The notes below the pieces were generated by a model, which was not told the origin of the DNA, ran no database searches, and saw only the letters and a program-made list of their open reading frames with translations. Of a DNA stretch of 64,000 nucleotides, positions 2,045 to 55,695 are shown piece by piece. The stretch is from Escherichia coli (GTDB lineage Bacteria > Pseudomonadota > Gammaproteobacteria > Enterobacterales > Enterobacteriaceae): NCBI RefSeq assembly GCF_003334815.1, contig NZ_QOWO01000013.1. One strand, 5' to 3'. A program made the translations under genes and the position numbers. Numbering within the stretch: position 1 is the first letter of the stretch; each line of letters starts with the position of its first letter.

Positions 2045-3409
2045 TTACTTACCAATACAGAAGCTGGAGAAAATCCGCCCCAGCAGGTCGTCTGAAGTAA
2101 ATTCCCCGGTGATTTCGCTTAAGTTCTGCTGTGCCAGACGCAACTCTTCCGCCAGCAGTTCACCTGCCCAGGCTCCCAACAGTTGCGCTTTGCCCTGTTG
2201 TAGATGTTCCGCTGCCTGTTCCAGCGCCTGTAGGTGGCGACGACGCGCCAGGAAGCCGCCTTCCATGTTGGTGTCAAAGCCCATGCTCTGTTTGAGATGG
2301 TTACGCAGCACGTCCACGCCTTCACCAGTCCTTGCCGAGAGACGAATTAACGCGTGACCGTTCACTTCACTCATTCCCAGCGTTTCGCCGGTGATATCGG
2401 CTTTATTGCGCACCACGGTGATCGGCAGTTTCGCTGGCAGACGGGCAATAAATTCCGGCCAGATCTCTGCCGGATCCACGGCGTCTGTTGTGGTGCCATC
2501 GACCATAAACAGCACGCGGTCGGCCTGTTCAATTTCCTGCCACGCGCGCTCGATACCAATACGTTCTACTTCGTCACTGGCTTCACGTAGCCCGGCGGTA
2601 TCGATGATATGCAGCGGCATTCCGTCAATGTGGATATGCTCACGCAGCACGTCACGCGTAGTTCCGGCGATATCGGTTACGATTGCCGCTTCACGCCCCG
2701 CCAGCGCGTTTAACAGGCTCGATTTACCGGCGTTAGGACGTCCGGCAATCACCACTTTCATCCCTTCGCGCAACAAACTACCCTGACGTGCTTCAGCACG
2801 CACTGCATCAAGATCGGCAATAACGTCATTGAGCTGGGCTTCAATTTTTCCGTCGGAGAGGAAATCGATCTCTTCATCGGGGAAATCAATTGCCGCTTCG
2901 ACGTAAATGCGCAAGTGGGTGAGGGCTTCTACCAGATGATTAACCCGTGCGGAGAATGCGCCTTGCAGCGAGTTAAGTGCCGAACGGGCCGCCTGTTCCG
3001 AACTGGCGTCGATAAGATCGGCAATCGCCTCGGCCTGGGCTAAGTCAAGTTTATCGTTAAGAAACGCGCGTTCGGAAAACTCACCAGGGCGAGCAATCCG
3101 CAGGCCGGGAATGGTCAGAATGCGTTTTAACAGCAGGTCGAGGATCACCGGACCGCCATGACCTTGCAGTTCCAGCACATCTTCGCCGGTGAACGAGTTC
3201 GGGCCAGGGAACCATAGCGCAATCCCCTGATCGAGCACGCTGCCGTCGGCGTCTTTAAACGGAAGATAATCGGCGTAGCGCGGCTTAGGCAGTTTACCCA
3301 GCACGGTTTCGGCAACTTCACGGGCTTTGAAGCCGGAGATGCGCAGGATGCCAACGCCGCCACGTCCCGGAGGCGTGGCCTGGGCTACGATAGTGTCATT
3401 ATCGCTCAT
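2045..3409 (-). CDS. mnmE: tRNA modification GTPase MnmE (TrmE)
   Basis: 454-aa [29 protein letters not shown]... with G-domain motif [12 protein letters not shown] and C-terminal CIGK. Confidence 0.95.
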
Positions 3410-50243: not shown

Positions 50244-51062
50244 ATGAAACTGACAACACATCATCTACGGACAGGGGCCGCATTATTGCTGGCCGGAATT
50301 CTGCTGGCAGGTTGCGACCAGAGTAGCAGCGATGCAAAACACATTAAAGTTGGCGTTATAAATGGCGCAGAACAAGATGTCGCGGAAGTCGCTAAAAAGG
50401 TGGCAAAAGAGAAATATGGCCTCGATGTTGAACTGGTAGGATTTAGCGGTTCGTTGCTACCGAACGATGCGACAAATCATGGCGAACTTGATGCGAATGT
50501 CTTCCAGCATCGACCCTTTCTTGAACAAGATAATCAGGCGCATGGTTATAAACTGGTAGCGGTGGGAAATACGTTTGTCTTCCCTATGGCGGGTTATTCC
50601 AAAAAAATCAAAACCGTGGCGCAAATAAAAGAAGGCGCGACAGTGGCGATCCCCAACGACCCGACCAACCTTGGTCGCGCACTTTTACTGTTGCAAAAAG
50701 AGAAGCTAATTACTCTGAAAGAGGGAAAAGGGTTATTACCTACCGCGCTGGATATAACCGATAATCCTCGTCATTTGCAGATTATGGAACTCGAGGGGGC
50801 GCAGCTCCCGCGCGTACTGGATGATCCCAAAGTTGATGTAGCGATTATCAGCACCACTTACATTCAGCAGACCGGGCTTTCTCCGGTGCACGACAGCGTA
50901 TTTATTGAAGATAAGAATTCGCCGTATGTGAATATTTTGGTGGCACGGGAAGATAATAAGAATGCAGAAAACGTGAAGGAATTTCTGCAATCTTATCAAT
51001 CACCCGAAGTCGCTAAAGCGGCAGAAACCATTTTTAACGGTGGCGCGGTGCCTGGCTGGTAA
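50244..51062 (+). CDS. nlpA: Lipoprotein 28 (methionine-binding lipoprotein)
   Basis: 272-aa ORF MKLTTHHLRTGAALLLAGILLAGCDQSSSDAKHIKVGV... with a lipobox LAGC. Confidence 0.9.
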   Translation: MKLTTHHLRTGAALLLAGILLAGCDQSSSDAKHIKVGVINGAEQDVAEVAKKVAKEKYGLDVELVGFSGSLLPNDATNHGELDANVFQHRPFLEQDNQAHGYKLVAVGNTFVFPMAGYSKKIKTVAQIKEGATVAIPNDPTNLGRALLLLQKEKLITLKEGKGLLPTALDITDNPRHLQIMELEGAQLPRVLDDPKVDVAIISTTYIQQTGLSPVHDSVFIEDKNSPYVNILVAREDNKNAENVKEFLQSYQSPEVAKAAETIFNGGAVPGW

Positions 51063-51065
51063 TTC

Positions 51066-51989
51066 TCACTTATGCCGCGCCGGACGATTTATTTTTCTGG
51101 CGCGGCGACGGGAATCCATTGAAATCAAAATCACCGATGACAGAATCAGCAGCGTTCCCAGCCAGTCCGGTAATGTGAACGTGATCCCCAGCAACAGCAA
51201 AGAGAGTAGCGCGCTACTTAATGGTTCTGCACAGCTCAAAATGCTGGCTTTTGGACCGCCAATTAATTGTGCTCCTTTCAGGTACAGACTAAATGTCAGG
51301 GACGTACCAATGACCACCAAATAAAAAAACGCCAGAATCAAACTGCCGTTAACGACAAAGTTTGTTCCTTGTCTGGCATAAAAAGGCAACAGAATCAGAC
51401 CGCCAATCAGCATACTCCAGCCGACGACTGGTAACGTGCCATAGCGGGCAATTAGCGTTGAGGGATAGGTGGTATAGAATGCAGCAGCAAATGCCGAGGC
51501 AATGCCCCAGAACAACGCGGCAGGAGAGATCGATAATGACGTCGGATTACCGTGTGTCACCAATAAAAAAGTCCCGACCAGCGATGTCAAAATAGCGCAG
51601 AAAACCAGAATGCCCGGGCGCGATTTACGCACCAGTGAGAACCAGGCGACGATAATCGTCGGTGAGAGGAATTGCAGCACCGTTGCCGTGGCTGCGTTCG
51701 ATTTTTCGATGGTTAGCAAAAAAGTGAGCTGTACAGTTAGCGCGCCAACCACGGAAAAAATCAGCAGGCTAATGGCATCTTTATGATTGTTAATAATAGA
51801 AAAGATTTTATCGCCATGAACAAATGACAGCGTCAGTAGAATCAAACCGGCGAATATCAAACGCGTCATAGTCAAAAACTGCGACGACATCTGGCTTTGC
51901 TCCATGATGTATTGCGCGCAGACCCCTGAACTTCCCCACAACACGGCGGCAATCAGAACGTTCAGCATCCCCTTTCTGGTGGAACCCAT
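51066..51989 (-). CDS. yicL: EamA/DMT-family transporter YicL
   Basis: 307-aa polytopic [34 protein letters not shown]... Confidence 0.85.
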
Positions 51990-52099
51990 TTTTCCCTCTG
52001 CATACTGTTTTGTCGTTTATGTATGCAGGCATGATAGCAAAAATGGCGAGGATGGCTCTGTTTGCGCCACGCCGATTTTTCTTAGCCCAGACTGGTGAG

Positions 52100-53284
52100 C
52101 TAAATATCTTTAATAAACAGCAGGCAAATCATCGCAATACCCAACATCCCTATCGCCAGCCAGAACAACGCATGGTAGCTCCAGATTTCAACCATAATTC
52201 CGTCAACAGAGCCGGCGATAATCCAGCCGACGCGTGAAGTATTTGCATATAACGTTGTCGCAGAGCCTATTTTTTCAGGCATCAAGTCCTGAAAATAAAG
52301 CATGCCGATACCACAGAGAATACCAAGGAAGATGGCATTAAGAATTTGCAATTCCAGCTCAACCGCCGGAGTCGTCGCCATGAGTACGCTGGCGTAAAAA
52401 CACATTCCACTCACGATAGCAATGAGCATTAATAGTCGCTTGCCAATACGTTTCATGTAATAGCCTGCGATTAACATCATCGGAATTTCCAGACCGGCAG
52501 CGATACCAATCATTTCTCCAGCCAGTTTATCGGTTAGATGCAGTTCATCAATAATAAATAGCGGCATATTTATCATGTAGAGATTATTCGCCGCCCACAT
52601 CATTGAACAGACCACAAAAAGTAGCCGCGTATCCCGCTTCCTGTGGGTGGAGGGTAAAATTTCTACGGGTTGGGTAACGACAGGAATATTTCTTTGTATT
52701 GATGGCAAAAACAACCAGACTATCAGTCCGCAAACAACAAATGCGATGGCAGCGGTGAGATACATCACTTTAAAACTAAATCCCATTGCCAGTTCATAAG
52801 CGAGCGGTGGCCCGATAACCCAGGCAAGCGAGATCTGAGCACGTAAAAATGTACTGAACATGACCGTCTCACGGCCTGTTCTGTCGGCGTGTTCACGGGC
52901 GAGGGCGAACATTTGCGGGTTTGCGGTGGAAGCAAAACTACTCAGAAGTACGCCCGTTGAGAGGAGAATGAAGTAGTTGCGATTCCACGCAAAAAGCGTG
53001 CAGGCCAGCACTCCAAATAAGCAACATAGCAGAATCAGTAATTTACGGTCGCCTTGTTTATCGGAGTGCCTTGCCAGAAATTGACTGACCAGAATTCCCA
53101 TAATAGCGCTACCGGTGAAGAAAAAACCTACCATTATAGGACGGGCTTTCAGTTCATCTGCGAGGAATATACTTAGGGTAGGAGTCTGAAGAGCGCCCGC
53201 AATACCCGTCAGAAAGGCGACAAGTAAAAATGCCGCGGCAGTGAGATCAAGTATTTTTGATGGAGTGGTAGCCGTTTTTTGCAT
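52100..53284 (-). CDS. setC: Sugar efflux transporter SetC (MFS)
   Basis: 394-aa ORF MQKTATTPSKILDLTAAAFLLVAFLTGIAGALQTPTLSIFLADELKARP... Confidence 0.85.
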   Translation of the reverse strand: MQKTATTPSKILDLTAAAFLLVAFLTGIAGALQTPTLSIFLADELKARPIMVGFFFTGSAIMGILVSQFLARHSDKQGDRKLLILLCCLFGVLACTLFAWNRNYFILLSTGVLLSSFASTANPQMFALAREHADRTGRETVMFSTFLRAQISLAWVIGPPLAYELAMGFSFKVMYLTAAIAFVVCGLIVWLFLPSIQRNIPVVTQPVEILPSTHRKRDTRLLFVVCSMMWAANNLYMINMPLFIIDELHLTDKLAGEMIGIAAGLEIPMMLIAGYYMKRIGKRLLMLIAIVSGMCFYASVLMATTPAVELELQILNAIFLGILCGIGMLYFQDLMPEKIGSATTLYANTSRVGWIIAGSVDGIMVEIWSYHALFWLAIGMLGIAMICLLFIKDI

Positions 53285-53920
53285 TCTTCTGAATCACCGG
53301 GCGAAAAAATATAACTGAGTTACAAATAAGTACCAGTCGAATGAGTATTGTATTAAGAATTTTTGAGTATCGCTGATACAACCAGAAAGCAATGCTAGCG
53401 CAATATTATAGGGCCAGCAATTGAGATTATTAGTAAAAGCATGTTAAGAATTAATTACCGAATTTATATATTAATTATAGTAAGGCAATGAGCTATTTTT
53501 GATAGTAAAAATAAAACAAGTTGATTTGATATATTAAATGAACAAATTAATCTTGATGGCAGTCTGATTATTGGTGAAGTTTATAGTCAGTTTTTTTCGC
53601 CAGCGGTTAAAGAAATAGAATAGTCGTATAAAAAAGGGTGTTCTGGGGCGAGTAAAACAACATCTTCACCTTAATGGCGATACAGTTGGCTGAGAGTCAG
53701 CAGGGGGGCAAATCACCTGCAAATAAACACGGCGCATACTGGCGTGAATATCGCGGATGCGTTCGAGGACAGAAGAACCGACAGGCGGATTCTTCAGCCG
53801 CTCATCGTCCATCACAAAACCTTAGACCAGGTATTCCTGAAGCCGATTGAATATTGAGCAGTAGAAAATATCTGGATTGACAGTATTACAAGGGGTTGGA
53901 GAACGTCAGGAGAGGCATTT

Positions 53921-54015
53921 TGGCGGAAGATCACAGGAGTCGAACCTGCCCGGGACCGCTGGCGGCCCCAACTGGATTTGAAGTCCAGCCGCCTCACCGG
54001 AGACGACGATCTTCC
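53921..54015 (-). tRNA. selC: tRNA-Sec (selenocysteine tRNA, anticodon UCA)
   Basis: Reverse complement of 53921..54015 is GGAAGATCGTCGTCTCCGGTGAGGCGGCTGGACTTCAAATCCAGTTGGGGCCGCCAGCGGTCCCGGGCAGGTTCGACTCCTGTGATCTTCCGCCA, 95 nt with the long acceptor and extra arm typical of tRNA-Sec and a 3' CCA. Confidence 0.95.
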
Positions 54016-54307
54016 GCGCCTCGATTGCTACATGGAGGCGGGGCGCATTATAGCTACTTCCTTGAGTTTCTACATCCCCCAGATCAGTTTTTTCCGCCTA
54101 ATACACGCAGCGTATTATCACGAAAGCATTATAGTTCATATAAAACCCATATTTTACAATGATATATGAGCGGAATTAACGCTACCACGATCACATAAAA
54201 CAAGAATCATAAATTAATAACCAGATATCGGAATATTCGCTCTCACAGGGATGGTTTACAAAATGCGTTATCGGTCTCAGCACCCCTATAGCATCAAGGA
54301 AAAGCAG

Positions 54308-55695
54308 ATGAAGAGTGAAGTGTTGTCCGTTAAAGAGAAAATTGGTTATGGCATGGGAGACGCCGCCAGCCACATTATTTTCGATAACGTAATGTTATAT
54401 ATGATGTTCTTTTATACCGATATTTTTGGCATTCCTGCCGGTTTTGTCGGAACCATGTTTTTGGTCGCTCGTGCACTGGATGCGATTTCCGATCCTTGCA
54501 TGGGGTTGTTGGCCGATCGAACGCGCTCTCGCTGGGGTAAATTTCGTCCGTGGGTACTGTTTGGCGCACTGCCATTCGGGATCGTCTGTGTACTGGCCTA
54601 TAGCACGCCAGATCTCAGTATGAACGGCAAAATGATCTATGCAGCAATTACTTACACCCTACTTACCTTACCTTACTTTATACCGTCGTCAATATCCCTT
54701 ACTGCGCATTGGGTGGTGTAATCACCAATGACCCGACTCAGCGTATCTCGCTGCAATCCTGGCGTTTTGTGCTGGCGACCGCGGGAGGCATGCTTTCTAC
54801 TGTTCTGATGATGCCACTGGTTAATTTAATTGGCGGTGATAATAAACCACTCGGTTTCCAGGGCGGTATCGCGGTCCTTTCCGTGGTGGCATTCATGATG
54901 CTGGCATTTTGTTTCTTCACCACTAAAGAACGCGTTGAAGCACCACCTACAACAACGTCTATGCGGGAAGATTTACGTGATATCTGGCAAAACGACCAGT
55001 GGCGGATTGTCGGTTTACTAACCATTTTCAATATCCTGGCGGTGTGCGTACGCGGTGGGGCGATGATGTATTACGTCACATGGATTTTGGGCACGCCGGA
55101 AGTGTTTGTCGCTTTTCTCACCACTTATTGCGTGGGTAACCTGATTGGTTCCGCACTGGCAAAACCTCTGACCGACTGGAAATGTAAAGTCACTATCTTC
55201 TGGTGGACGAACGCCCTGCTGGCAGTGATTAGCCTCGCGATGTTCTTTGTTCCCATGCAGGCCAGCATCACTATGTTTGTCTTCATCTTCGTGATTGGTG
55301 TGTTGCATCAACTGGTGACACCTATCCAGTGGGTAATGATGTCCGATACCGTCGACTACGGCGAGTGGTGCAATGGTAAACGCCTGACCGGGATCAGTTT
55401 TGCTGGCACGCTGTTTGTGCTCAAACTGGGGTTGGCCTTCGGCGGCGCTCTTATCGGCTGGATGCTGGCTTATGGCGGATATGATGCGGCAGAAAAAGCG
55501 CAGAACAGCGCCACGATTAGCATCATTATTGCGCTATTCACGATTGTTCCGGCGATCTGTTATTTGCTGAGCGCGATTATCGCTAAACGCTACTACTCAC
55601 TCACGACGCACAATCTGAAAACCGTTATGGAACAGCTGGCTCAGGGTAAACGCCGTTGCCAGCAACAATTCACCTCTCAAGAAGTGCAGAACTAA
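54308..55695 (+). pseudogene. yicJ: GPH-family sugar:cation symporter gene yicJ, frameshifted by an extra CTTAC unit
   Basis: The homolog is split between ORF 54251..54721 (frame 2) and ORF 54709..55695 (frame 1). Start-to-stop length from MKSEVLSVKEK is 1388 nt, which is 5 nt more than a 460-aa coding length; the frame switch falls on three tandem CTTAC units at 54662..54676. Confidence 0.75.
54662..54676 (+). repeat. Pentanucleotide tandem repeat (CTTAC)x3 inside yicJ
   Basis: cttac cttac cttac read directly from the sequence; deleting one unit restores a continuous reading ...AAITYTLLTLLYTVVNIPYCALGGVITNDPTQ... Confidence 0.85.

Follow-up and report, generated by a model that had tools for sequence, protein, structure and literature searches.

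Integration at selC

The selC gene for tRNA-Sec is the target of LEE, PAI-I (strain 536), SHI-2, SPI-3, LPA, the Tia island, GIselC17584/1 and phiR73, and a 24-bp direct repeat has been reported for selC islands (PMC6174562). SPI-3 of Salmonella, located at selC, contains rhuM (PMC3680342), and RhuM-like domains have been proposed to act as toxins in defence neighbourhoods (PMC3710099).

As judged from the known behaviour of P4-family tyrosine integrases, such an enzyme would exchange strands within a 24-nt stretch that is identical in attP and at the 3′ terminus of selC, and integration would thereby regenerate an intact tRNA gene at attL and leave a partial copy at attR. In an occupied site the integrase gene would then be expected ∼160–300 nt 3′ of the intact selC, and the opposite end of the element would be marked by a partial, 24-nt copy of selC.

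Comparison of empty with occupied genomes reveals both the target and the integration products. In OkiPb01677 (L003), a K-12-type flank that is 99.9% identical to the window analysed here (the whole 64-kb stretch of Escherichia coli DNA, to which coordinates refer unless otherwise stated) continues through an exact copy of the 24-nt selC end, TGGCGGAAGATCACAGGAGTCGAA, and then into a CP4-like island. In WS4437A-1 (L128), in which 24 kb of backbone matches the window at ∼100% identity, an 11,946-bp P4-like satellite (L128 14246..25705) is positioned exactly between selC and a flank bearing the RhuM relic described below. The satellite encodes an integrase, a HEPN protein, psu, delta/ogr, icd, a primase-helicase and a TIR-domain reverse transcriptase, and its far end carries a copy of the selC att core that matches at 23 of 24 positions. 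The satellite is possibly a relative of retronphage phiR73, for which integration at selC is known. The HEPN protein and the reverse transcriptase, an anti-phage type, are encoded beside the integrase and make the satellite an instance of the hotspot holding defence cargo. Integrases adjacent to selC were also detected in genomes L004, L005 and L006.

The description of selC in an earlier note on this DNA as a classic island target, with LEE and PAI-I as examples, agrees with the published list of selC elements (PMC6174562) and with the sequences of L003 and L128, which are split exactly at 53921..53944. Since genomes with near-identical flanks have integrase-borne islands exactly at 53921, the site can be regarded, on such comparison of sequences, as a live hotspot.

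Organization of the selC locus

A single tRNA gene was detected by ARAGORN in the 64-kb window, a tRNA-SeC with anticodon tca and a length of 95 nt on the minus strand at 53921..54015, where the earlier note had placed it. The gene scores 83.8 bits against the Rfam model RF01852, the gathering score of which is 47 (E = 1.9e-17; full match to model positions 1–91). A covariance model score above the curated threshold, the UCA anticodon and the 95-nt length, which includes an encoded CCA, together identify it as tRNA-Sec and as the equivalent of selC (b3658) in K-12.

On its 3′ side, exactly 636 bp (53285..53920) separate selC from setC, and on its 5′ side a divergent intergenic region of 292 bp (54016..54307) leads to yicJ, the ATG of which is at 54308; the distances of about 636 and 290 bp given previously were thus accurate. 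The G+C content of the selC-setC spacer is 38.1%, vs 51.9% for the window, and the longest stop-free stretch in it spans 64 codons. When the spacers were searched against Rfam at E ≤ 1, tRNA-Sec was the only RNA family recovered.

Upstream of selC, a perfect TATAAT followed by a GC-rich discriminator is found on the minus strand at 54052..54037, 31 nt from the mature 5′ end of the tRNA, and is a unique match. It represents a putative −10 element of the selC promoter, an assignment made from motif and position; the consensus promoter scanner made no call at this TATAAT, and the −35 is poor. Promoter and terminator predictions across 53200..54400 were at or below the number expected from shuffled sequence. 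Folding of the 126 nt 3′ of selC was no more stable than that of shuffled sequence (z = +0.87), and an intrinsic terminator is not evident there.

The setC gene (52100..53284, minus strand), known from the open reading frame list and the K-12 annotation, encodes a 394-aa sugar efflux transporter paralogue and has a G+C content of 46.2%. A T to C substitution (plus strand) at 52522 relative to MG1655 results in SetC T255A; the SetC proteins of other strains also differ from that of K-12 (WP_001172876.1 vs WP_001172878.1).

The gene on the other side of selC was correctly named yicJ in the earlier note, in which its frameshift was overlooked. This gene (54308..55695, plus strand) is disrupted by an additional 5 bp at ∼54662..54666, where the sequence CTTAC is present in three copies instead of two. 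The encoded product is identical to K-12 YicJ over 121 aa and terminates at 54719..54721, giving a protein of 137 aa instead of 460, and a second open reading frame (54709..55695) holds the remainder of yicJ. Among 5,421 complete genomes of E. coli, the length at the position of the duplication is matched only in that of an O111:H8 strain, and the duplication is either an assembly error or the result of a rare slippage event.

The 1,023-bp stretch from setC to yicJ (53285..54307) is an exact substring of the MG1655 chromosome NC_000913.3 (1,023 of 1,023 nt). In that genome selC ends at 3,836,316 and setC starts at 3,836,953, so that the intervening spacer (3,836,317..3,836,952) is likewise exactly 636 bp long and 100% identical to that of the window, and a much shorter K-12 spacer, which would have spoken against an empty site, is not seen. 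Over the larger interval of ∼7 kb from yicL to yicI, also bounded as nlpA to yicI, the window and MG1655 measure 7,028 and 7,023 bp, respectively, and are distinguished by one 5-bp indel and one SNP. This collinearity bears out the earlier statement that no large insert is present. The window backbone is nearest to other phylogroup-A-like strains such as KE58, and the source therefore need not be K-12 itself. The yicL region, which corresponds to window positions 50244..51989, contains in NC_000913.3 (L127 6643..6702) an antisense gene for the 19-aa small protein YicU (b4797).

An unoccupied attachment site

The 24-nt att core formed by the 3′ end of selC (53921..53944, minus strand; TGGCGGAAGATCACAGGAGTCGAA as read on the plus strand) occurs only once in the window. 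Probes comprising the terminal 17 or 25 nt of selC each had a single occurrence in the 64 kb, even when three mismatches were allowed, and local alignment of a 65-nt probe (20 nt of flank and 45 nt of tRNA) across the whole window for degenerate attR-like copies gave scores equal to those of shuffled sequence. The absence of a direct repeat of the tRNA 3′ end claimed in the earlier note therefore holds for exact, mismatched and degenerate copies alike.

Integrase sequences were sought by tblastn across the whole window using as queries the selC-adjacent integrases of L004 (O157-like) and L005 (EC958), both of which represent occupied selC sites, and the best match (E = 1.6) was at the level of chance. 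The ten longest stop-free pieces of the spacer (32–64 aa) returned nothing integrase-like from NCBIfam and PHROGs. The statement in the earlier note that no integrase ORF is present thus extends, in these searches, to integrase remnants.

With no second core, no integrase remnant and no extra DNA, the locus reads as an unoccupied attB: the core is single, the flanks are collinear, and the same position is split by elements in other genomes. The features of an integrase-borne island, namely an integrase adjoining the tRNA gene and tRNA-derived direct repeats, are both lacking. We therefore hold it very likely that this is an unoccupied selC attB in the K-12 order yicJ/selC/yicT′/setC/yicL, in which the spacer is old debris that most likely derives from an earlier selC-linked element or gene; nothing contradicts the reading of the site as unoccupied.

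Neither product of integration is present, so that an element either never integrated at this copy of the site or was precisely excised from it, two histories that the sequence cannot distinguish. Recent excision of a former island by integrase and excisionase, for instance in the laboratory, would restore attB and regenerate exactly the sequence observed, and near-identical backbones bear a P4-like satellite at selC. Such an event is nevertheless unnecessary to account for an empty state common to 2,472 genomes from many sources, and no trace separates an excised from a never-occupied site; we regard it as most improbable.

No other single state of the locus is as common in E. coli as the K-12-type arrangement. 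Among 5,426 complete E. coli genomes, 53285..54307 is contiguous, and hence of the unoccupied K-12 type, in 2,472. The K-12-type flank is present somewhere in 3,628 genomes, and by difference is separated from selC in ∼1,156 of them, while in ∼843 genomes the sole form is an intact but divergent ‘virulence RhuM’ gene. Of 30 genomes sampled at even intervals, ∼47% were empty and of the K-12 type, ∼13% had an intact rhuM beside selC, as in LF82, and ∼40% had an element at selC.

A RhuM relic in the spacer

The description of the locus in the earlier note as the empty K-12 configuration stands in that no integrase-borne island is present, but the site is not blank. The spacer contains a 168-nt fragment of a RhuM-family pseudogene (53675..53842, minus strand), recognized by tblastn, by Pfam and by annotation and located 78 nt from selC. 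It corresponds to residues 121–187 of the 345-aa RhuM of LF82 (tblastn, E = 2e-17), is interrupted by an in-frame TAG and has suffered an 8-codon deletion. A profile match to PF13310 (Virulence_RhuM) covers model positions 50–98 of 252 (i-E = 1.6e-10). With the stop and the deletion, an intact full-length frame is lacking, and the fragment is therefore a pseudogene and not a functional member of the family. It is annotated as a rhuM pseudogene by PGAP in the K-12 sequence CP097882 and as yicT (b4653) in NC_000913.3, where the annotated extent maps to 53681..53812 of the window. Both yicT and the arrangement of the locus are thus already known and represent the ordinary K-12 state, and a literature search for ‘yicT’ gave no matches.

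The relic is ∼75% identical in nucleotide sequence and 61% identical in amino acid sequence to LF82 rhuM and is therefore not a recent derivative of the LF82 allele. It is present as a pseudogene, at 90–100% identity, in 3,628 of the 5,426 E. coli genomes, and an intact copy of this allele was found in none of them. A closer intact relative was also sought among 120 loci from other species and rejected, as the relic is approximately equidistant (60–65% amino acid identity) from every intact RhuM found. Given this equal distance, its source cannot be named.

Between the relic and setC, upstream of the latter, is an AT-rich tract of 29% G+C (53300..53640; 0.293 in the composition profile). It returned no Rfam family at E ≤ 1, its translated pieces gave no protein family, and promoter-like sites within it were below shuffle expectation. 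Immediately 3′ of selC, ∼23 nt (53898..53920, minus strand) resemble in alignment both the LF82 flank and the end of P4-type selC islands that lies nearest the integrase, with local alignment z scores of 5.7 against LF82 and ∼4 against the island ends of L004, L094 and L031. The idea that the K-12 flank beyond these ∼23 nt is a shortened island arm was not retained, because with the first 15 nt excluded the alignments are mostly not significant, and it amounts to a hint only.

The relic bears directly on whether the site is pristine, that is, whether the 636-bp spacer is native backbone in which foreign DNA was never present. The lack of integrase, repeat and insert and the predominance of the K-12-type arrangement would fit such a history, but it leaves unexplained a RhuM fragment with an in-frame stop 78 nt from selC, followed by a tract of 29% G+C. 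It also sits poorly with the replacement of the yicL-selC interval by other DNA in LF82 and Escherichia sp. E1V33, and with the finding that setC adjoins selC in none of 120 loci from other species (0–12 kb of downstream DNA was available per locus). The RhuM fragment largely refutes a pristine site, to which we assign hardly any probability.

The yicL-selC slot

The relic is part of a lineage-variable slot between yicL and selC (52019..53905) that is occupied in the window by setC, the AT-rich tract and the relic. Going towards selC, the window and LF82 cease to be homologous after 52018, shortly beyond the start of yicL, and are homologous again from 53906, at a distance of 15 nt from selC. 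In LF82 the slot contains a hypothetical gene and an intact rhuM (345 aa; WP_001280585.1), 52 nt from selC, and no setC. LF82 also has a second, degenerate rhuM-like fragment beyond the intact gene (L002 ∼2996..3137; +1344..+1485 from selC) that is 74–77% identical in nucleotide sequence to the rhuM of Escherichia albertii; it was considered as the counterpart of the K-12 relic and rejected, since the two do not match. In Escherichia sp. E1V33 the first 57 nt of the flank are of K-12 type (83% identity), a short 5′ piece of rhuM is also shared, and the slot otherwise contains other DNA and no setC.

The atypical composition of the slot and its presence or absence according to strain are properties shared with islands and are compatible with a decayed remnant, not with an active island. 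A more specific proposal is that the 1.9-kb segment 52019..53905 constitutes a cryptic, integrase-less islet, the surviving cargo of a single ancient selC island in which setC was acquired horizontally. The precise breaks in homology with LF82 and E1V33 at 52018 and ∼53906 would suit this proposal, as would the absence of setC beside selC in every other species sampled, the descending G+C content from window (51.9%) to setC (46.2%) to spacer (38.1%), and the rhuM relic with an island-like 23-nt flank at the selC end. On the other hand, the yicL side lacks an att-like repeat or other boundary signal, mobility genes are missing, the G+C deviation of setC is modest, and setC may have arrived independently of rhuM. 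Moreover, the segment is found at 90–100% identity in approximately two thirds of E. coli genomes, where it behaves as backbone. We consider an islet of this kind conceivable but doubtful, and membership of setC in the same old acquisition as the rhuM relic is a similarly tentative suggestion.

RhuM and selC in other species and the history of the site

A scan of species-representative genomes for the 3′ end of selC yielded the 120 loci referred to above, 99 of which comprised a complete selC followed by 700 nt or more of sequence. At 32 of these 99 loci the first recognisable feature 3′ of selC was a P4-type integrase (22 full, 10 fragments), and at 14 it was RhuM (5 full, 9 fragments), invariably in the orientation of the tRNA gene; neither was first at the remaining 53. 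Genera in which RhuM comes first are, among others, Morganella, Hafnia, Photorhabdus, Xenorhabdus, Providencia, Erwinia, Enterobacter, Kosakonia, Atlantibacter and Pseudescherichia. Short contigs (L010, L032, L050, L097 and L121) from genome bins labelled as Bacillota, Sphingobacterium, Clostridiales, Wohlfahrtiimonas and Collinsella MAGs also combine the 3′ end of an enterobacterial selC with either RhuM or a P4-type integrase; mis-binning of enterobacterial contigs is almost certainly the cause, and the integrase on L121 is 100% identical to that of EC958.

Among the integrase-bearing selC islands in the sample, rhuM directly follows the integrase gene only in E. albertii, in which the order is selC, island arm, broken integrase and intact rhuM. 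The LF82 junction between selC and rhuM is equivalent to the E. albertii selC-int′-rhuM sequence with nt 44–1647, the integrase remnant, removed. An attR-like copy between int′ and rhuM was searched for in E. albertii and none was found.

The position of RhuM directly 3′ of selC in 14 of 99 loci from other species suggests that the K-12 spacer records the decay of an older element. On the simplest account, a RhuM-bearing element or gene was situated at selC in an ancestor of Escherichia, and its decay took different courses in different lineages. In K-12-type genomes, the integrase and most of rhuM would have been lost before E. coli diversified, leaving the 168-nt internal fragment. The relic in the spacer and the tract of 29% G+C are accordingly taken to be, most likely, what is left of a former element or gene linked to selC. 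We infer this history with less assurance than the unoccupied state of attB, because the yicL side has no att-like repeat, only ∼23 nt of the flank are significant in alignment, islands mostly have no rhuM after the integrase gene, and the source of the relic cannot be named.

A broader and more speculative reading, which we think rather unlikely, is that RhuM has been a long-standing partner of selC across the Enterobacterales, that the linkage is functional and not accidental, and that a RhuM element older than the diversification of Escherichia survives as a fossil in the ‘empty’ K-12 site, in yicT and perhaps also setC. If so, RhuM might serve, for example, as a stabilising or abortive-infection gene at the att-proximal end of the element. 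The toxin role proposed for RhuM-like domains (PMC3710099) makes the recurrent linkage mildly interesting and leaves the status of the finding unchanged.

Beyond correct annotation, the significance of the locus is small: it represents the reference empty state of a classic island hotspot and can be used as a baseline when strains are typed for occupancy of selC by LEE, PAI or satellite elements. It also illustrates that ‘empty’ reference sites can hold fossils of earlier elements, such as yicT, that should be mistaken neither for backbone nor for a current island.

Comparison with described selC systems

The integrase-borne elements at selC, as seen in L003, L004, L005 and L128, share with the window both their chromosomal flanks and their target at the 3′-terminal 24 nt of selC. 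The window differs from them in having no integrase, partial selC repeat or cargo and constitutes the target site, not an element. With LF82 and other B2 genomes the window has in common a PF13310 gene immediately 3′ of selC in the orientation of the tRNA gene. That gene is intact in LF82, whereas the window, in contrast to LF82/B2 and to SPI-3, retains only the 168 nt for residues 121–187, interrupted by a stop codon and shortened by a deletion.

The closest counterpart is K-12 MG1655, in which the locus comprises yicJ (b3657), selC (b3658), the pseudogene yicT (b4653) and setC (b3659). The sequence of 53285..54307, the spacers of 636 and 292 bp, the pseudogene fragment and the gene order are all equal in the two, and the only differences, the 5-bp CTTAC duplication of the window in yicJ and SetC T255A, are located outside this stretch.
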